Source: Escherichia phage vB_Eco_OMNI12
Sequence record: OL362041.1
Strand: one strand, 5' to 3'
Length of the DNA: 64,000 nt
The translations under genes were made by a program, and so were the position numbers. This document shows positions 1-31,737 of this stretch, piece by piece (within the stretch, counting starts at the first letter, position 1; each line of letters begins with the position of its first letter). The notes beneath the pieces were generated by a model that saw only the letters and a list, made by a program, of their open reading frames with translations, did no database searches and had not been told where the DNA came from.

Positions 1-2068
<2,068 letters not shown>

Positions 2069-2099
2069 ATATATTAAAGCATATTAAAGAGGATTAAAA

Positions 2100-4079
2100 A
2101 TGACTTTATTATCTCCGGGCATTGAGCTCAAAGAAACTACGGTTCAAAGCACCGTGGTTAATAACTCTACTGGTACAGCAGCTTTGGCCGGTAAATTCCA
2201 GTGGGGTCCTGCTTTTCAGATTAAACAGGTTACAAACGAAGTAGATTTAGTTAATACTTTTGGTCAACCTACAGCTGAAACTGCTGACTATTTTATGTCT
2301 GCAATGAATTTCTTACAATATGGAAATGATTTGCGAGTTGTGCGCGCTGTCGATAGAGATACCGCTAAAAACTCATCTCCGATTGCTGGTAATATTGAAT
2401 ACACAATTTCTACCCCAGGTAGTAACTACGCGGTTGGAGATAAAATCACGGTCAAATATGTTTCAGAAGATGTTGAAACAGAAGGTAAAATTACCGAAGT
2501 AGATGCTGATGGAAAAATTAAGAAAATTAATATTCCTACTGCAAAAATTATTGCTAAAGCTAAAGAAGTTGGCGAATACCCAACATTAGGTTCTAACTGG
2601 ACCGCGGAAATTTCTTCATCTTCTTCCGGTTTAGCTGCAGTAATAACTCTTGGAAAAATTATTACTGATTCTGGTATTTTATTAGCTGAAATTGAAAATG
2701 CTGAAGCTGCTATGACAGCGGTTGACTTTCAAGCAAATCTCGAAAAATACGGAATTCCAGGAGTAGTAGCTCTTTATCCAGGCGAATTAGGCGATAAAAT
2801 TGAAATTGAAATCGTATCTAAAGCTGACTATGCAAAAGGAGCTTCTGCATTACTCCCAATTTATCCAGGTGGCGGAACACGTGCATCTACTGCCAAAGCA
2901 GTGTTTGGATATGGACCACAAACTGATTCACAATACGCTATTATAGTTCGTCGCAATGATGCTATTGTTCAAAGTATTGTTCTTTCAACAAAGCGTGGTG
3001 AAAAAGATATTTACGATAGTAACATCTACATTGATGACTTTTTCACAAAAGGCGGTTCAGAATATATTTTCGCAACTGCACAAAACTGGCCAGAAGGATT
3101 CTCTGGAATTTTAACTCTGTCTGGTGGATTATCATCAAATGCTGAAGTAACAGCAGGAGATTTAATGGAAGCCTGGGACTTCTTTGCTGACCGTGAATCT
3201 GTTGACGTTCAGTTGTTTATTGCGGGTTCTTGTGCCGGTGAATCTTTAGAAACAGCATCTACTGTCCAAAAACACGTCGTTTCAATTGGGGATGCTCGCC
3301 AGGATTGCTTAGTATTATGCTCACCACCGCGCGAAACTGTAGTTGGAATTCCTGTAACTCGCGCTGTTGATAACTTAGTCAATTGGAGAACCGCAACAGG
3401 TTCATACACTGATAATAACTTTAATATCAGTTCAACCTATGCAGCAATTGATGGTAACTACAAATATCAGTATGACAAATATAATGATGTCAATCGCTGG
3501 GTTCCATTAGCAGCTGATATTGCCGGTTTATGTGCAAGAACCGATAACGTTTCTCAGACTTGGATGTCTCCAGCTGGTTATAATCGCGGCCAGATTCTTA
3601 ACGTTATTAAACTTGCTATTGAAACTCGCCAAGCTCAGCGCGACCGTTTATACCAAGAAGCTATCAACCCAGTAACTGGTACAGGTGGTGATGGTTACGT
3701 ATTATATGGTGATAAAACAGCTACTTCTGTTCCTTCTCCATTTGATCGTATTAACGTTCGTCGTCTGTTTAATATGTTGAAAACGAATATCGGACGTAGT
3801 TCAAAATATCGTTTGTTCGAATTAAACAACGCGTTTACTCGTTCATCATTCCGCACAGAAACTGCCCAATACTTACAGGGAATTAAAGCTCTCGGTGGAA
3901 TTTATGAATATCGTGTAGTTTGCGATACAACAAATAACACTCCGTCAGTAATTGATAGAAATGAGTTTGTTGCAACATTCTACATCCAACCTGCACGCAG
4001 TATAAATTATATCCAACTTAACTTCGTTGCGACTGCTACTGGTGCAGATTTCGATGAGTTGACTGGTCTTGCAGGTTAA
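2100..4079 (+). CDS. 18: contractile tail sheath protein
   Basis: 659 aa, same length as T4 gp18; follows gene 17; SD-like GAGG upstream. Confidence 0.9.
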   Translation: MTLLSPGIELKETTVQSTVVNNSTGTAALAGKFQWGPAFQIKQVTNEVDLVNTFGQPTAETADYFMSAMNFLQYGNDLRVVRAVDRDTAKNSSPIAGNIEYTISTPGSNYAVGDKITVKYVSEDVETEGKITEVDADGKIKKINIPTAKIIAKAKEVGEYPTLGSNWTAEISSSSSGLAAVITLGKIITDSGILLAEIENAEAAMTAVDFQANLEKYGIPGVVALYPGELGDKIEIEIVSKADYAKGASALLPIYPGGGTRASTAKAVFGYGPQTDSQYAIIVRRNDAIVQSIVLSTKRGEKDIYDSNIYIDDFFTKGGSEYIFATAQNWPEGFSGILTLSGGLSSNAEVTAGDLMEAWDFFADRESVDVQLFIAGSCAGESLETASTVQKHVVSIGDARQDCLVLCSPPRETVVGIPVTRAVDNLVNWRTATGSYTDNNFNISSTYAAIDGNYKYQYDKYNDVNRWVPLAADIAGLCARTDNVSQTWMSPAGYNRGQILNVIKLAIETRQAQRDRLYQEAINPVTGTGGDGYVLYGDKTATSVPSPFDRINVRRLFNMLKTNIGRSSKYRLFELNNAFTRSSFRTETAQYLQGIKALGGIYEYRVVCDTTNNTPSVIDRNEFVATFYIQPARSINYIQLNFVATATGADFDELTGLAG

Positions 4080-4114
4080 TACGGTGCATTCTAAAGGCCT
4101 GTTTCGGCAGGCCA

Positions 4115-4122
4115 TATAAATA
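4115..4122 (+). promoter_or_regulatory. late promoter TATAAATA upstream of gene 19
   Basis: Exact TATAAATA; second copy at 4174..4181. Confidence 0.6.
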
Positions 4123-4195
4123 CACTATATCCTTAATTCTTTAATTCTATATGCCCTAGGTTAAACATAGGGATATAAATACTACAGAGGCTAAT

Positions 4196-4687
4196 ATGTT
4201 TGTAGATGATGTAACACGAGCGTTTGAATCTGGTGATTTTGCTCGACCTAACTTATTCCAAGTAGAAATTTCTTATCTTGGACAAAATTTTACATTCCAA
4301 TGTAAAGCCACTGCTTTACCAGCTGGTATTGTAGAAAAAATTCCAGTCGGATTTATGAACCGTAAAATTAACGTAGCAGGCGATCGTACATTCGATGACT
4401 GGACTGTTACAGTAATGAACGATGAAGCTCATGATGCTCGCCAGAAGTTTGTTGATTGGCAAAGCATTGCTGCTGGTCAAGGAAACGAAATTACTGGTGG
4501 AAAACCTGCAGAGTATAAAAAGAGCGCTATTGTTCGTCAATATGCTCGTGATGCTAAAACAGTAACAAAAGAAATTGAAATTAAAGGTCTGTGGCCTACT
4601 AACGTGGGTGAACTTCAATTAGATTGGGATTCAAACAATGAAATCCAAACCTTTGAAGTAACTCTTGCTCTCGATTATTGGGAATAA
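4196..4687 (+). CDS. 19: tail tube protein
   Basis: 163 aa, T4 gp19 length; two TATAAATA late promoters upstream. Confidence 0.9.
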   Translation: MFVDDVTRAFESGDFARPNLFQVEISYLGQNFTFQCKATALPAGIVEKIPVGFMNRKINVAGDRTFDDWTVTVMNDEAHDARQKFVDWQSIAAGQGNEITGGKPAEYKKSAIVRQYARDAKTVTKEIEIKGLWPTNVGELQLDWDSNNEIQTFEVTLALDYWE

Positions 4688-4719
4688 AATGAATGGGGAG
4701 AAATCCCCATCCTGCTTAA

Positions 4720-6344
<1,625 letters not shown>

Positions 6345-6345
<1 letters not shown>

Positions 6346-6584
6346 TGGAAGGTTTAATTGAAGCTATTAAATCAAACGACCTCGTAGCCGCTCGTAAATT
6401 ATTTGCTGAAGCCATGGCTGCAAGAACGACTGATTTAATTAAAGAAGAAAAAATCGCTATCGCTCGTAATTTCTTAATCGAAGGTGAAGAACCTGATGAC
6501 GAGGATGATGACGAAGACGAAGATAGTGATGATAAAGACGACAAAAAAGACAAAGACTCTGACGAAGACGAGGATGATGAATAA
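6345..6584 (+). CDS. 67: prohead core protein with acidic C-terminal tail
   Basis: 79 aa; poly-Asp/Glu tail; position between 20 and 68. Confidence 0.7.
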
Positions 6585-7009
6585 TGCTTCTGATCCCTGA
6601 AACTCATGAATTAGTTCTCGAGAATGTCGAAGCACTTATTCCTGAAGCACAGGGTCGCTTTGACGAATTGTCTTCTGCTTTAAATAAAGACGATATAAAT
6701 ACAATTGTCGAGAATATGCTTGATGATGAAACTGATTTAGCGGTTGCATTAGCTTCTATTAATGAAAATATGCCGTTAAATGAATTTATCGTTAAACATG
6801 TTTCTGCCCGTGGTGAAATTACTCGCACTAAAGATCGCAAAACCCGCGAACGTAATGCATTTCAAACTACCGGGTTGTCTAAAGCAAAACGTAGACAAAT
6901 TGCTCGTAAAGCTACCAAAACGAAGATTGCCAATCCAGCAGGTCAATCTCGTGCTCAGCGTAAGCGTAAAAAAGCTCTTAAACGCCGTAAAGCATTAGGA
7001 TTAAGCTAA
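6584..7009 (+). CDS. 68: prohead core protein
   Basis: 141 aa; basic C-terminus; position upstream of gene 21. Confidence 0.7.
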
Positions 7010-25541: not shown

Positions 25542-25544
25542 CAA

Positions 25545-25564
25545 TGGGGACCTTTCGGTCCCCA
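25545..25564. terminator. bidirectional terminator between gene 54 and the minus-strand block
   Basis: TGGGGACC-TTTC-GGTCCCCA followed by T-run. Confidence 0.7.
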
Positions 25565-25569
25565 TATTT

Positions 25570-25860
25570 TTATTTACGGAATGAAATGAAAGCAGCAACT
25601 GAAGCAACTAAACTGTCTTCAATATAAACTTCAATTTTTACCGGAGCTTCTGACTCAAATTTACCTGTTACTACACCCTGAAAAATACTTTCAGTCTGTT
25701 CTGGCTTTGAAAAATTTTCAGAAGGAAAAATTCCGAACTTTTTATCTGTTCCAAAAATTTTGATAAATTCATCGTAAACTGCTTCATTAAAAGCATTATC
25801 AGCAGGAATAACGCCTTCAACTACAAGTTCTTGACCTAAAAAGCGCAAAGAAGATTTCAT
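25570..25860 (-). CDS. hypothetical protein downstream of alt
   Basis: 96 aa ORF; its SD lies inside the repeated hairpin element at 25868..25921. Confidence 0.5.
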   Translation of the reverse strand: MKSSLRFLGQELVVEGVIPADNAFNEAVYDEFIKIFGTDKKFGIFPSENFSKPEQTESIFQGVVTGKFESEAPVKIEVYIEDSLVASVAAFISFRK

Positions 25861-25867
25861 TTTGTGT

Positions 25868-25921
25868 TCCTCATGTTATGTCAGTAAGACTACTATAACA
25901 CAACACGAGGGACTTGTAAAC
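25868..25921 (-). repeat. 54-bp repeated hairpin element containing the SD of the downstream gene (copy A)
   Basis: 53/54 identical to 41815..41868; 12-bp stem with SD GAGG in the 3' arm. Confidence 0.8.
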
Positions 25922-27978
25922 TACATCTTGAACTTTTTAGACATTCCGTTGATGTTAACCAAAGAAGCTAAGATTTGAGAAACTTCGTTTTCCTCTTCTT
26001 TTGATTCTTCTACAAGGAATTGATTAAATCCAGCCATTGGACGAACTTCACCAGTTTCCATTAGATGGTCGCCATCATATACTGATTCTTCTAATTGTTC
26101 AGAAGGAGGAACGATTGTACCTTCGATTAGATACTTGTTATAAGCAGTTTCTTTCATAAAGTAAGTACTTACTTTATTAATCTTCAGTAAAATTCCACGT
26201 GGTAGAATAACTTCAGCTTCTGACGGAAATCCTGATAAATGACCCGGAACGATAACTTTGATTCGCTCAGCTCCTTTAATTACCATACCCACGCTAGTTT
26301 CAGCATCTTCATTAGCATATGTAGAATGACTACCCATATGCATCAAATCTTCTGCATCAACGGAACCTTCTCCTTCACCAGAAAATACTGCGCCGGAATC
26401 ATCTAGAGCCATATAGTTTTTACCATGCTCACCGAAGATATTTGGTTTAAGCGATGTGGATACGAAGTTCTTGAAATAGAACATTTTATTTTCAATGTTA
26501 TGACGCAAAGTTTTAAAGGTAACTTCTTGTCCACGGTAAAGTGTAGTTCCTGGAGGAAGAACTGAACCTTTAGCGAATGCAGAATCAAGCGTCTCAATAT
26601 GTTTAATAGCTCGTTCCATATATTCTTCACGGGTAGAATCTGGTTTACCCAAAAGGAACGAGTTCATTTCAACATATGAATCTGCACAATAATCTTCAAT
26701 TACATCAGATTCAGCTTGAGTTAATCCTTTTGGAGTTACTTCAGTGCTTGCGTATTCATATGCCTGAGCAGCAGATTCATTAATCAATTTATAAATGCCA
26801 TTCATGACAAATTGAATAATAGCTGTCTTTTCATCTGGCGTAGCTTTAGAACCTTTAACCAAATCATTGATAATTTTCTTAATAACATCAAAGCTATTAG
26901 AAATATTAATATCAGCAAGATCGCTTAAAATTTTATCAGTCTTATAATCAAAGAATTCTTTATTCTTTAAATATTCTTGAGAACCTTGATATGTTATATC
27001 GCTCTGTAACTTGATAGATGGATCACGTAAACGTGCATGGGCTAATGCAATATGATTTCGGAAGCTTTCGAGTTCATAATCACTAGATTTAAAACGAGAA
27101 GCGCTTCTCATACCGCCTATAGCTCCTTTGCTGAAGTTTGAACCAATTTGAATAACGCCAGAGTTCATTGGTCCTTCTGCTTTATACACCGGAACTTTAG
27201 ATTCAAACTCTTGATATTTCTTAGCAGCGAAGCTATCACCCTGAAGTGAAGCATCAACAGTAGAATATTGAGCTTGTGCTGCTAATCGACGACTAATTTT
27301 AGTTTTCTGAATAACAGCTTGGTCCGTGCGCTTATCATTTTCTAAAGCAATAGAAGCAGCAACAGCAACAGCTTTAGGAACAGCATTACCTGTTTTAACA
27401 TCTACATAAACATCACCAACCTTTGATTCAACTTTTGTGAATAACTCAGTTGAAATAGGAGGTACACCTGGAATGTCTTCTAAATTGGCATTTTTACGAT
27501 AAACCATAATATATGCGTACTTTTTATCATAATCCCAGATTTCCTTTAAAAGAACATATCGACCTGCTCCTTTAGTACGTACTAAACGGTCAGCAATAAC
27601 TTGCATTTGACGAGCAGCGCCATTTGTTTTACTCTTTAGTACGCGGAATAAGCATGCATCAATTTTATACTGTTTCATTGTTTGAAGAGCAGTATCAAAA
27701 ACAGCGTTAATGACGCCAATTGGATTTCCACCCAAGTTTCTAAGTTTAACCAGTGATAATTTCTCGTTGACACCTATCATTACGATATGCATCATTTTAT
27801 CGCCTGGCTTAACGTTTTTATTCGTATCACCACCAGAGGTGTATGTACAAAATCTAAATCCAGGAAGCACGCTTTCTTCGCCGGCTTGAATAGCAAAAAT
27901 TTGTGGTATTTTATGCTTAGGATTTAAGTTAACAACCGGCGCCGAAGCGCCGTCAAATAATTCTGTAATAAGTTCCAT
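25921..27978 (-). CDS. alt: Alt-like ADP-ribosyltransferase, paralog 1
   Basis: 685 aa; N-terminus MELITELFD; C-terminal R-S-E type ART motifs (TLYRGQ ... FVSTSL ... EAEVILPRG). Confidence 0.85.
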   Translation of the reverse strand: MELITELFDGASAPVVNLNPKHKIPQIFAIQAGEESVLPGFRFCTYTSGGDTNKNVKPGDKMMHIVMIGVNEKLSLVKLRNLGGNPIGVINAVFDTALQTMKQYKIDACLFRVLKSKTNGAARQMQVIADRLVRTKGAGRYVLLKEIWDYDKKYAYIMVYRKNANLEDIPGVPPISTELFTKVESKVGDVYVDVKTGNAVPKAVAVAASIALENDKRTDQAVIQKTKISRRLAAQAQYSTVDASLQGDSFAAKKYQEFESKVPVYKAEGPMNSGVIQIGSNFSKGAIGGMRSASRFKSSDYELESFRNHIALAHARLRDPSIKLQSDITYQGSQEYLKNKEFFDYKTDKILSDLADINISNSFDVIKKIINDLVKGSKATPDEKTAIIQFVMNGIYKLINESAAQAYEYASTEVTPKGLTQAESDVIEDYCADSYVEMNSFLLGKPDSTREEYMERAIKHIETLDSAFAKGSVLPPGTTLYRGQEVTFKTLRHNIENKMFYFKNFVSTSLKPNIFGEHGKNYMALDDSGAVFSGEGEGSVDAEDLMHMGSHSTYANEDAETSVGMVIKGAERIKVIVPGHLSGFPSEAEVILPRGILLKINKVSTYFMKETAYNKYLIEGTIVPPSEQLEESVYDGDHLMETGEVRPMAGFNQFLVEESKEEENEVSQILASLVNINGMSKKFKM

Positions 27979-27981
27979 GAT

Positions 27982-30039
27982 TTATCCTTGAACGAACTTG
28001 TAAGGCATGTTTGCAATATCTATACAAGACGCAATAATTCCAAGAGATGATTCTACTTTCTGTTTAACATTTGATGAAACAAATGATGCAAAATCAACTC
28101 TGTCTTCTATTTCAATATCACCTGTCATTGTAACTACTTCGCCGGTTTCCATTAGACGGTCACCGTCATAAATTACCGATTCGGTGAGTTCTTCTGTGGT
28201 CATAACTTCAGCTTGAATAAGCTTGTTGTTAGTTTTAACTGTTCCATCATTGTAAGATGCATCGGTTATTTTATTAACTTTGACCATTAATCCACGTGGC
28301 AAAATGACTTCCATTTCATTTGAAGGTGCTAAACTTCCACCTGGTAAAACAACATTGACTTTATCAGCCCCAGTAATAACCCATCCAATTCCAACTAAAT
28401 TATCGCTAGAATTTACTAGTCCTTCATCAGTTTTATCAATAGAAACACTTAAACGCTTTTCGTCTGGTAAAACACCCACAGATGAATCAGTCATCCAGGT
28501 ACCAAAAATATTTGGATATAATGATGTTGACACAAAATTTCTAAAATAAAAAACTCGATTTTTTACCAGTGCTTCATATATTGAAGGTAACATTCGTTGT
28601 GAACGATACAAAGTAATACCTTTTGGTAATCGTTCACCATTTTTAAAGGCAGAATCTAAATTATCAATAGCTTTTTCTATATCAGATGCTGTCAAAATAC
28701 TTGTACGCTCATCTGGATTATATAATCCCAAAAGAGCGTTATTTATGTCTACATATCCTGAACTTACGTATTCACGAATTCCGCGTTTTTGTGCCGGTGT
28801 GTATTTAGATGAATCTTTATTTTCGACTATAGGATGTAGTGACCATCCAGCGGTAAGAGCATATCCACGCAATTCTCTTCGAATAATCTTTGTTTTTATT
28901 GCATTCCAAGAATTTTGTACTAACTCATTCGCAGCATCTTGATTTAAATGCGAATGCTTGTTAATGTTTCTTTCTAACCAAGCACCTTTATATTTTTCTA
29001 AAGTATCATCAACTATAGAAGCAATAGTTTCTAAAGTTTTTATTGAAGTAATAGATTCTTTTCGTAATCTTTCTAAAGCTTTATTTTTTATTTCTGCATT
29101 AACATCAGATTCTTTATCTTCAGGAATTATAGAAGCTTCTCTGAATGCCATTCCAGCTGTAACACTACTAAGAGCATTCTCTAATGCAAATCCTGAAGTA
29201 GAAATAACAGTTAATTCATTAGCGTCAGAAATTAAAGGAGCGTCAGCAGGTTTATTTAATTCTGCTGCTGAAGCCTCAAATTTTTGAAACATCGGCGTTT
29301 CAAATCTAGAAGATTCCAATGATTGACTTTGCGCAATTGCTCTACGGGAAATTTTAACTTTAACGATTACAGCTTGGTCAGAACGTTTATCATTTTCTTG
29401 TGCAATAGATGCTGCAATTGCCTCATTTTTGGTTACTTGAACTCCGGTATCTTTATTGATATAAACATCACCGACCTTCGATTCAACTTTAGTAAAGAGC
29501 TCGGTACTAATTTCCGGAACTCCTGGAATGTCTTCTAGTGATACATTTTTGCGATGTATAAGAATATATGCATACTTTTTATCATAATCCCAGAGTTCCT
29601 TAAGAAGGACGTATCTGCCACCTGAACGACTACGGATAAGTCTATCAGCAATAACTTGAATTTGTCGAGCTTGACCAGCGGTTTTAGACTTAAGAATACG
29701 AAGCATACAAGCATCAATTTTATACTGACGCATTGTTTGCATTGCAACAGTAAAAACTGAATTGATATAATTAATTGGGCTTGGACCAAGACCTTTTAAT
29801 TTAGCAATTGAACCTTTAGCAGTTAATGTAAAAGGAACAATATGCATCATTTTATCGCCCATCTTTAAATCGCGATTAGTATCACCTCCAGATGTATAGG
29901 TACATAAACGAAAACCTGGTTGTTCAATTGCATCATCAACATGAACTGAAAAAATTTGTGGTATTTTCTTCTTTGGATTTAAGTTTGTAATCGGAAGAGT
30001 AGTATCTTCGTCAAATAATTCTGTAATAAGTTCCATCAT
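27982..30039 (-). CDS. alt: Alt-like ADP-ribosyltransferase, paralog 2
   Basis: 685 aa; same N-terminus; ART motifs (TLYRSQ ... FVSTSL ... EMEVILPRG); late promoter upstream. Confidence 0.85.
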   Translation of the reverse strand: MMELITELFDEDTTLPITNLNPKKKIPQIFSVHVDDAIEQPGFRLCTYTSGGDTNRDLKMGDKMMHIVPFTLTAKGSIAKLKGLGPSPINYINSVFTVAMQTMRQYKIDACMLRILKSKTAGQARQIQVIADRLIRSRSGGRYVLLKELWDYDKKYAYILIHRKNVSLEDIPGVPEISTELFTKVESKVGDVYINKDTGVQVTKNEAIAASIAQENDKRSDQAVIVKVKISRRAIAQSQSLESSRFETPMFQKFEASAAELNKPADAPLISDANELTVISTSGFALENALSSVTAGMAFREASIIPEDKESDVNAEIKNKALERLRKESITSIKTLETIASIVDDTLEKYKGAWLERNINKHSHLNQDAANELVQNSWNAIKTKIIRRELRGYALTAGWSLHPIVENKDSSKYTPAQKRGIREYVSSGYVDINNALLGLYNPDERTSILTASDIEKAIDNLDSAFKNGERLPKGITLYRSQRMLPSIYEALVKNRVFYFRNFVSTSLYPNIFGTWMTDSSVGVLPDEKRLSVSIDKTDEGLVNSSDNLVGIGWVITGADKVNVVLPGGSLAPSNEMEVILPRGLMVKVNKITDASYNDGTVKTNNKLIQAEVMTTEELTESVIYDGDRLMETGEVVTMTGDIEIEDRVDFASFVSSNVKQKVESSLGIIASCIDIANMPYKFVQG

Positions 30040-30059: not shown

Positions 30060-30067
30060 TATTTATA
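30060..30067 (-). promoter_or_regulatory. late promoter TATAAATA (minus strand) upstream of alt paralog 2
   Basis: TATTTATA on plus strand 21 nt from the alt start. Confidence 0.6.
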
Positions 30068-30073
30068 AAATTA

Positions 30074-30090
30074 AAGGCCCGAAGGCCTTT
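30074..30090 (-). terminator. terminator hairpin downstream of gene 30 block
   Basis: AAAGGCC-CGAA-GGCCTTT. Confidence 0.55.
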
Positions 30091-30277
30091 AGTAATCTAG
30101 TGGTAAGAGAGTACGATATATTTCAAACTTTGGTCCTTTTTCATAGGCATCAAATGTTTCTGTAAATTTATTATAAGCGTATGCATCTACAAATTCGAGA
30201 ATGACTTGTGATACAGAAGTAGAAACATCTCCACCTTCTTTTTGAGCAATGACAATTGTTTCTAAGTAAGCTTTCAT
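30089..30277 (-). CDS. hypothetical small protein
   Basis: 62 aa ORF between gene 30 and alt, start overlaps stop of gene 30. Confidence 0.4.
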   Translation of the reverse strand: MKAYLETIVIAQKEGGDVSTSVSQVILEFVDAYAYNKFTETFDAYEKGPKFEIYRTLLPLDY

Positions 30278-31737
30278 AAACCAGTTACCTCATGAAAATC
30301 ACCAAATACATCCTCGAATGTATTAGCTTTAGTTTTATCTTCACGTAAACGAATCGCAATCGGAAGAAATAATTTAACGTAATCAGTGCGGCCATCAGAT
30401 TTTAACCAACCGTTGCATTCGCACTCTAGAATTTTTCCAATATAATAATTTTGGTTTTCCATAATGCGAGTACGGTCAAGTTCATGCGATTTTACACCGG
30501 CTTTATCTTTTAAGCCTGAACCAGCATTTACCTTAATTTTTCCACACTCTGATTCAAGAATAAATCCACCCGCTTTAGTAGGGTCTTTACGGTGAGGATA
30601 AATTCCTACAATTTTTAAATCAACATCAATTACTTCTTTAAATTTATAGAGATTTTTTGAACGAGCATTTTCCCACAATCCATCGGTATTTTTGAGAATA
30701 ATACCTTCAAGACCTTGGTCAATATACTTTTTATAAATTACCTTAGCTTCATCTAGGTTATTTACTACCTGGTTTTCAATTAAAATTACTTTATCATAAC
30801 CTGATGTCATTTGTTCTAGTTTAGAAAAACGTACATCATATTTCAAACGAAATGCAGGAAGACCGTATATTTCTACCAACGGGACATAATCCCAGACCTG
30901 AAACTTCATGCATTGAGCTTCTTTTTCAGAAATGGTTCCCTTTAAAGATTTATTGGCGATGCCATTAGATGCAGTACGTGATTCAGCTACTTCGGCGAAT
31001 TCTTTAGCTTTACTAATTTCAGGATAAGCATCAAAAAGAAAATCTAGGCCTTCTGGCTCCTTTTCAACTTGCTCATGGTATACCAATTCGCCATCAATTA
31101 ACACACCTTCTGGATGAATCTGGCGGGCTTCAGCAGTCATTTTGATTAACTCTTCCTTAAGAAGATCTAATCCTAGATATTCATTACCAGCTCGTGATAA
31201 AAGACGAACATCATCTAATTCATCACCTCTGACTTCAGCAAAACACCGAGCTCCATCAGCTTTTAACTGGGCAAAGGCTGGAAATTTGATATTCTTACTA
31301 ATGCCTTTTTCATCATAAGAACTTGCAAGCATTTGAGGTTGTTCAGGAATTAAACCTGGCCAAACTTTGTTTGCAATAGATACTGAAGCACCGCATTCAA
31401 GGTCTCGCATCATCACCCGACGCAAAACTTCAACATCATCTTTTTTACCGTCAGTAATATATCCAGTTAATTCCTCAATTGCCGCATTTCCAGTCAATTT
31501 CCGAGTAGCTAACGTGAATTCAATGAAGTCAAGCATATCGGTAAGAGTCAACATTCCAAAACTCTGGGTAGCAATACCCGGTTTAGGCCATTTCTTGATA
31601 TAATACTGTAACCCACGAGAATAAGTCAGACGATATACTCGTTTAAGCAATTCATTATCTTTATTCTTTTCAAGAATTGCTTGCTTCTGCTTAGTTGAAC
31701 CAATAGATGCTATTTCGCTCAGAATTTTAAGAATCAT
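30274..31737 (-). CDS. 30: ATP-dependent DNA ligase
   Basis: 487 aa as T4 ligase; adenylation motif KADG (AQLKADGARC). Confidence 0.9.
   Translation of the reverse strand: MILKILSEIASIGSTKQKQAILEKNKDNELLKRVYRLTYSRGLQYYIKKWPKPGIATQSFGMLTLTDMLDFIEFTLATRKLTGNAAIEELTGYITDGKKDDVEVLRRVMMRDLECGASVSIANKVWPGLIPEQPQMLASSYDEKGISKNIKFPAFAQLKADGARCFAEVRGDELDDVRLLSRAGNEYLGLDLLKEELIKMTAEARQIHPEGVLIDGELVYHEQVEKEPEGLDFLFDAYPEISKAKEFAEVAESRTASNGIANKSLKGTISEKEAQCMKFQVWDYVPLVEIYGLPAFRLKYDVRFSKLEQMTSGYDKVILIENQVVNNLDEAKVIYKKYIDQGLEGIILKNTDGLWENARSKNLYKFKEVIDVDLKIVGIYPHRKDPTKAGGFILESECGKIKVNAGSGLKDKAGVKSHELDRTRIMENQNYYIGKILECECNGWLKSDGRTDYVKLFLPIAIRLREDKTKANTFEDVFGDFHEVTGL

Follow-up and report, generated by a model that had tools for sequence, protein, structure and literature searches.

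What two adjacent, full-length genes for Alt-like proteins mean to a T4-like phage, and whether they encode one function or two, is the question raised by the alt locus of Escherichia phage vB_Eco_OMNI12. Alt, which acts on many proteins besides RNA polymerase, is the textbook case of an enzyme that is carried in the phage head and injected with the DNA, and nearly all that is known about it comes from T4. The window analysed here (64,000 nucleotides (nt) of sequence record OL362041.1, a segment of a Tequatrovirus, i.e. T4-like, genome) carries two such genes in tandem, which we refer to as copy A and copy B. On the basis of the sequence comparisons described below, we lean towards the reading that the locus is a late-expressed two-gene array, in which copy B would be a second packaged and injected, arginine-specific ADP-ribosyltransferase (ART) with substrates different from those of copy A. 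In evolutionary terms, copy A is the classical T4 alt, and copy B an ancient paralogue kept by most Tequatrovirus and lost from T4 by deletion. All coordinates are given as positions in the window, and the features lie on the minus strand unless another one is indicated.

Both open reading frames (685 codons each, minus strand) were located exactly where the initial annotation had described them: copy A, the orthologue of T4 alt, at 27982-30039, and copy B, a full-length Alt paralogue of 685 amino acids (aa), at 25921-27978. The two are separated by the 3-nt spacer that had been recorded (27979-27981, reading TAA-atc-ATG from the stop of A to the start of B), and both open with the common N-terminus MELITELFD. 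Copy A begins with ATGATG, and the second ATG (at 30036) is probably its start (giving 684 aa), since it has the better Shine-Dalgarno spacing from GAGAGG and since the annotated start of T4 Alt lies there; the residues of copy A are numbered here from this second ATG. Copy A has 98% aa identity to the T4 alt protein (NP_049811, a head-packaged and injected NAD:arginine mono-ADP-ribosyltransferase), and likely behaves like T4 Alt, by analogy; its flanking genes, late promoter position and cleavage motifs are also those of T4 alt.

Copies A and B are 41% identical by BLASTP, with an expectation value (E) of 2e-158, a similarity far beyond chance. The identity is unevenly distributed (67% in aa 1-238, 15% in aa 239-405, 34% in the ART domain and 35% in the tail): a conserved region exists, as had been annotated, but it is the N-terminal third of the proteins and not their centre, and the C-terminal catalytic halves do differ. 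Both copies score above the gathering cutoff (23.4 bits) of PF03496 (ADPrib_exo_Tox), A with 120.9 bits (E 5.5e-35) and B with 71.9 bits (E 5.8e-20), and both are matched end to end by phrog_802 (Alt-like RNA polymerase ADP-ribosyltransferase; E 2.3e-261 for A and 2e-256 for B). Furthermore, PF26846 (Tevenvirinae_ADPRT) is found precomputed on homologues of B, including a protein 99% identical to it, and an NCBIfam scan returned no family for A, B or the downstream gene alt.-3.

The catalytic motifs of the R-S-E type are kept in both copies, and on careful alignment neither of them lacks the catalytic Arg, Ser or Glu. In copy A these are R478 (within LYR, 28603-28605), S503-T-S505 (28522-28530) and E574-M-E576 (28309-28317, the glutamates of the ExE/ADP-ribosylating toxin turn-turn (ARTT) motif), and in copy B R482 (26533-26535), S507-T-S509 (26452-26460) and E587-A-E589 (26212-26220). 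An alignment of 22 sequences (A-type, B-type and related paralogues) shows no variation in the Arg, S-T-S and E-x-E, and among 59 family representatives these residues are conserved to at least 90%. While the context of the S-T-S motif (FVSTSL..PNIF) is common to A and B, the loop between S-T-S and E-x-E differs, the residues leading into the latter being GFPSEAE in B and APSNEME in A. By all the defining features that can be tested in sequence, both copies are members of the Tevenvirinae Alt family and of the R-S-E (Alt/VIP2) clade of ARTs, to which Alt, ModA and ModB of the T4 group have been assigned (PMC5512222); their arginine specificity we infer from the E-x-E signature and from what is established for T4 Alt. 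Set against T4 Alt, copy B agrees with it in domain plan, in N-terminal propeptide and in the R/S-T-S/E-x-E residues, and departs from it in overall identity (41-42%), in the central helical region (15%) and in the STS-ExE loop.

An AlphaFold2 (AF2) model of copy B (mean predicted local distance difference test score (pLDDT) 71.8, predicted template-modelling score (pTM) 0.68) has an alpha/beta N-terminal domain (approximately aa 12-215), from which a long helical region (220-470) leads to a beta-rich ART domain (470-622); a disordered, low-confidence stretch (629-664) and a terminal helix come last. The top matches of the modelled ART domain among PDB structures (Foldseek; E down to 3.7e-07, template-modelling score (TM) of the target ~0.6) are Vis, CDTa, C3bot, Certhrax, VIP2 and iota toxin. 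By sequence, a search of the PDB gave no match for B and only a weak one for A (CDTa, E 0.008), and returned no solved Alt structure on which residues could be mapped. C3bot, iota Ia, CDTa, VIP2, Vis and Certhrax (all PF03496) have the ART fold and the Arg/S-T-S/(E/Q)-x-E residues in common with A and B; the C3 and binary toxins are, however, only 14-20% identical to the Alt copies, are delivered by a toxin translocon instead of a phage capsid, and have no counterpart of the N-terminal and helical regions of Alt. The N-terminal alpha/beta domain of copy B (aa 1-238, 27265-27978) is presumed to be a module for association with the prohead core, and hence for delivery.

As to packaging, T4 Alt is reported to be present in about 40 copies per head (PMC5694885; PMC9026906); its cleavages by gp21, the prohead protease, have been mapped experimentally to positions just after ITE-6 and LTE-619, and yield a mature protein of 68.2 kDa (PMC5694885). 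Predicted gp21 motifs are found at homologous positions towards both ends of both copies: ITE and LTE in A (the latter at 28180-28188, equivalent to the C-terminal site LTE-619), and ITE and LEE in B. The opening MELITE is identical in A and B, so that the ITE of copy B (aa 4-6, 27961-27969) is also identical to the T4 Alt site ITE-6. The LEE of copy B (aa 629-631, 26086-26094) stands directly before SVYDGD and precedes the conserved SVYDGDHLMETGEV block, in a position homologous to LTE-619; in the model it coincides with the beginning of the disordered stretch (629-664), and the C-terminal propeptide block YDGDxLMETGEV that follows is conserved in B. The predicted mature proteins would span aa 7-619 in A (68.2 kDa, which equals the published mass of mature T4 Alt; PMC5694885) and aa 7-631 in B (69.1 kDa), and with such masses they would co-migrate on gels.

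The transcription signals point to joint expression of the two copies. A motif matching the T4-type late promoter consensus, TATAAATA (30060-30067, minus strand), lies 20 nt upstream of A and is the sole perfect match on the minus strand between 25.5 and 30.4 kb; it probably drives A, B and possibly alt.-3. The initial annotation had seen a late promoter in front of one copy only, which agrees with this single perfect motif, and had called that copy the distal one, which does not: the promoter precedes A, the first gene to be transcribed. No perfect TATAAATA was found for B in the same interval, and a separate late promoter for B was rejected, given that sites with one mismatch occur at about the rate expected by chance (8 in 4.9 kb). 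One of these late-promoter-like sites, TATAGATA (28017-28024, minus strand), is situated 39 nt upstream of the B ATG, inside the 3' end of A, and is likely a chance occurrence for the same reason. The next strong terminator after the alt late promoter lies beyond alt.-3, with none within A-B-alt.-3. Moreover, an AAGGA Shine-Dalgarno sequence is present 6 nt before the ATG of B, and its location within the last codons of A suggests that the translation of B is coupled to that of A. We consider that B is probably co-transcribed late together with A.

The arrangement is widespread among related phages. A megablast search with the locus matched 527 phage records (366 of which covered at least 80% of the query), many of them annotated with 'Alt-like RNA polymerase ADP-ribosyltransferase (x2)', and a tblastn search with the divergent two-thirds of B recovered 401 records with an identity of at least 95%. 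T2, T6, RB51, OE5505, ECO07P5 and SH7 each have B at full length, in the position that it occupies here and likewise 3 nt from A. The second Alt-like genes of T2 (AYD82791), T6 (AXN58232) and RB51 (ORF198) are the same gene as B, as are OE5505 YP_010072485, SH7 gp188 and others; those of T2, T6, RB51, OE5505 and SH7 have 97-100% aa identity to B and show no substantive difference from it. Adjacent alt paralogues in T4-like phages (44RR, RB49 and T4) were noted as early as 2006 by Nolan et al. (PMC1524935). The novelty that the initial annotation had implied does not stand, the pair being annotated in T2, T6, RB51 and hundreds of further records: the tandem alt pair is already known as annotation, and as a genome feature it is ordinary. 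The record of the Shigella phage sb1 (PQ666539, 2772-4829) divides B into two annotated pieces; as gp48 is split in the same record too, we discount this case as probably the product of sequencing or assembly errors.

As regards T4 itself, the single alt stated in the initial annotation is right in that one intact alt is present, and incomplete in that alt.-1 and alt.-2 are what a deletion has left of B. T4 keeps the first 348 nt of B (at ~95% DNA identity), in which the loss of 1 nt from an A-run at nt 160 breaks the reading frame in two, giving alt.-1 and alt.-2. The segment of B that is missing from T4 (~1.69 kb, corresponding to 25941-27630 on the minus strand of the window) lies between two copies of a 9-nt microhomology, CTAAARAGT, and SKCSLQVPRVVL, with which alt.-2 ends, results from reading the final codons of B and on into the spacer out of frame. 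The profiles phrog_23015 and phrog_15247 (for T4 alt.-1, NP_049810, and alt.-2, NP_049809) match B with E values of 2e-40 and 1e-37, and A with 1e-21 and 2e-19, respectively. A 141-nt probe spanning the T4 junction was covered to at least 80% in 91 of 498 records, which makes the deletion a minority allele and T4 the exception. The GenBank record of T4 describes alt.-1/alt.-2 as 'an old duplication of the first part of alt', and that of T6 describes the full gene as 'an apparent insertion in alt.-2'. The comparison indicates that alt.-1/alt.-2 are a remnant of B that arose through deletion and frameshift; it replaces the insertion proposed in the T6 record by a deletion in T4, and is thus a modest clarification of the direction of the event.

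The age of the pair and the selection acting on it were assessed from the synonymous divergence (dS) and from the ratio of nonsynonymous to synonymous divergence (dN/dS). Between A and B, dS is saturated (1.28) even in the well-conserved aa 1-238, from which we conclude that the duplication is old and that the similarity of the N-termini reflects constraint; a recent gene conversion of the N-terminus was rejected on the same value, together with the length of the longest exact stretch of DNA shared by A and B (28 nt). Among six Tequatrovirus B genes (pairwise Nei-Gojobori), dN/dS lies at 0.02-0.06 for a dS of 0.12-0.28, the same range as that of A within one allele type, and by these estimates B is under strong purifying selection.

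A B-type orthologue was also recovered from another genus: in the Dhakavirus WG01, ORF199 (which occupies the last slot) is 51% identical to B overall and 52% over the divergent part, where A and B are themselves about 30-35% identical. The WG01 locus (stretch 244-6356) consists of three tandem Alt-like genes (ORF201, ORF200 and ORF199; 631, 693 and 707 aa), all of which carry the Arg, S-T/A-S, ExE and (L/I)xE sites. As in the window, these paralogues lie in tandem between the ligase side and gene 54, and they differ from the pair described here in number (three copies versus two) and in sequence (33-51% identity to A/B). The (L/I)xE site before SV(I)YDGD is found in A, in B and in two of the three WG01 paralogues, the third of which has (L/I)xE at the aligned position and lacks the SV(I)YDGD block. 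The number of alt copies at this locus varies: T4 has one and a remnant, most Tequatrovirus have two, and WG01 has three.

The two proteins follow a common plan (an ITE-ending propeptide, an alpha/beta N-terminal domain, a variable helical region, an ART domain of the C3/iota/VIP2-like R-S-ExE type, and an LxE site with an acidic C-terminal propeptide). If copy B is indeed a second injected ART, they would run through the same sequence of events. Both genes would be transcribed from the single TATAAATA upstream of A, with B being translated by coupling or from its own AAGGA; both proteins would enter the prohead core via the shared N-terminal (and possibly the C-terminal) module, and would there be trimmed by gp21 at the conserved sites to ~68 and ~69 kDa. 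Ejected with the DNA into the next host, each would ADP-ribosylate arginine residues in a distinct set of host proteins, a choice governed by the diverged helical region, the STS-ExE loop and the ARTT turn.

The suggestion of two packaged ARTs with different targets, already put forward by the initial annotation, thus draws support from the intact motifs, the selection on B, the shared N-terminal domain and gp21 motifs, and the diverged substrate-facing regions; in what it says about the packaging, injection and targets of B it goes further than the observations do, and several points weigh against it. The presence of B in the virion, its cleavage and its injection are matters that we infer from motifs. 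The virion proteome of SH7 (PMC5238451), the sole one found for a two-copy phage in a literature search, reported the A-slot protein alone (2 peptides), and lists no more than 13 proteins, a depth at which nothing can be decided about B. The AF2 model of B is of only moderate confidence. Copy B is dispensable at least in laboratory hosts, as T4 and 90 other records carry the deletion, and one metagenomic contig has a lone A/B chimera in place of the pair. Finally, with the same E-x-E signature in both copies, it is possible that the targets of A and B overlap. When the literature was searched for work that names or characterises a second Alt paralogue, or for virion proteomics in which two Alts are resolved, annotation-level remarks were all that came up, with no functional study of B among them.

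A more far-reaching version, which we offer as a tentative proposal, holds that B is a separate injected effector with a host target of its own (possibly a defence or stress-response protein), and more broadly that the alt locus is an array of cassettes. In such an array a fixed frame for delivery (the N-terminal domain and the C-terminal propeptide) may accommodate interchangeable ART modules that are duplicated, deleted, fused and exchanged.

That B might instead be a redundant second dose of Alt strikes us as rather improbable. According to this explanation B would be packaged and injected to act on the same substrates as A (Arg265 on the alpha subunit of RNA polymerase and the other Alt targets), and would only raise the dose or provide robustness. 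The two copies do belong to one family, with the arginine-type E-x-E signature and the FVSTSL..PNIF context in common, and T4 grows well without B. Redundancy alone would nonetheless not lead one to expect that purifying selection maintains, over a long time, two copies that have diverged so far: they are old paralogues (as judged by the saturated dS and by the B-type orthologue in another genus), each is strongly constrained, and their identity amounts to only 15% (helical region) and 34% (ART domain).

Less probable still is an active ART that is not packaged and acts late in the producing cell (for instance on phage or host proteins at the time of assembly), in the fashion of ModA and ModB. 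Late transcription would be compatible with a late intracellular role, and the search of virion proteomics found no detection of B. Copy B has, however, kept the whole of the N-terminal domain that is known from Alt proteins only, both gp21 motifs and the propeptide YDGDxLMETGEV, features that would not obviously serve a purpose anywhere but in the prohead. It is established for T4 that ModA and ModB, which are small, early-expressed, unpackaged and encoded elsewhere in the genome, lack these features, the N-terminal domain of Alt and the gp21 sites among them. A decaying or catalytically dead duplicate, to which the loss of B from T4 and about 90 other records might point, is effectively refuted by the selection and motif data, with B intact in about 400 records (at least 95% aa identity), a dN/dS of 0.02-0.06 and all catalytic residues in place.

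Apart from the preferred reading of B as a second injected ART, the comparisons yielded several observations on the wider evolution of the locus. The A slot is allelic, with a T4/window type and a T2/T6/RB51/ECO07P5 type that are identical in aa 1-240, 93-100% identical from aa 616 to the end, and 16-83% identical in between. The ART domain of the T6 type (aa 420-630) is 95% identical to that of WG01 ORF200, with a dS of 0.39 as compared to more than 1.7 in the flanks, and this difference in dS suggests that an ART cassette was exchanged between genera. In the Krischvirus MIZ6 (stretch 3735-6689) an Alt of 683 aa stands adjacent to a stand-alone ART of 274 aa that is devoid of the N-terminal domain. 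The chimera mentioned above was found on a T4-like contig, the Logan metagenomic contig SRR24155011_2765 (5001-7055), where a single alt is placed between alt.1 and alt.-3; its first ~540 nt are A-type and the rest B-type, and the chimeric protein bears a precomputed PF26846. Such a gene is consistent with the product expected from unequal crossover between tandem copies, and for this single contig an assembly artefact at k=31 is not an obvious, though still a conceivable, cause, since the longest exact match between A and B is only 28 nt.

We also considered the N-terminal domain as a general delivery module that is fused to varied effectors, a notion that was rejected at the level of sequence. 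A phmmer search with aa 1-238 against 1.84 billion representative proteins recovered 69 clusters, in which the domain is always N-terminal; among the near full-length sequences that were scanned (58 cluster representatives and B), 57 of 59 carry PF03496 and none carries another Pfam domain. In a Foldseek search against BFVD, the model of the B domain (aa 1-240, 27259-27978) matched, beyond Alt homologues, non-Alt proteins of unrelated myoviruses (E 1e-7 to 1e-5, query TM ~0.5). These include large uncharacterised proteins of Erwinia phage phiEa2809, Dickeya phage RC-2014, Vibrio phages VP-1 and Kuja, and Agrobacterium phage Atu_ph07; a Zeta-toxin domain is annotated in one of the matched proteins and a deaminase domain in another. 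The matches hint, without proof, that the delivery fold of Alt may be used more widely.

The surroundings of the pair are those of an alt gene in T4. On the minus strand, and in the order of transcription, gene 30 (DNA ligase, 30274-31737) is followed by alt.1 (30089-30277), copy A, copy B and finally an alt.-3 orthologue (25570-25860; 96 aa, DUF5498), the last gene in the cluster, while the plus strand carries the orthologues of T4 genes 29, 48 and 54. The alt genes are thus located between alt.1/DNA ligase and alt.-3/gene 54, opposite the baseplate genes, and the gene order is that of T4 apart from the presence of B. A terminator-like hairpin (30072-30091, minus strand; an 8-bp stem and a T-run) directly follows alt.1, just upstream of the alt late promoter. 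A match to the consensus of a sigma-70/T4-early-like promoter (25892-25920, minus strand; GTTTACA, 17 nt, TGnTATAGT) is present in the 60 nt that separate the B stop from alt.-3; it suggests an early expression of alt.-3 as well, independent of the late alt transcript. Between the convergent gene 54 and alt.-3, a hairpin with a perfect 9-bp stem and T-runs on both strands (25544-25565) is a candidate bidirectional terminator, and OE5505 has an annotated terminator at the equivalent site.

For the biology of the T-even phages, these observations identify T4 as the exception, as about 400 of its relatives (T2 and T6 included) encode a second, strongly conserved Alt paralogue that has the packaging hallmarks of Alt and a different substrate-facing part. 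Should B be a separate effector, the picture of the T-even injected proteins that is based on T4 would be incomplete, since T4 has deleted B. If B is injected and has targets of its own, the inventory of host modifications in the first minute of T-even infection would need to be revisited, as would the ways in which T4 differs from T2/T6 in taking over the host or in being sensitive to defence systems, and the use of T4 as the sole model. We consider copy B to be a widely conserved, probably injected and uncharacterised effector, which poses a clear experimental question rather than a surprise.

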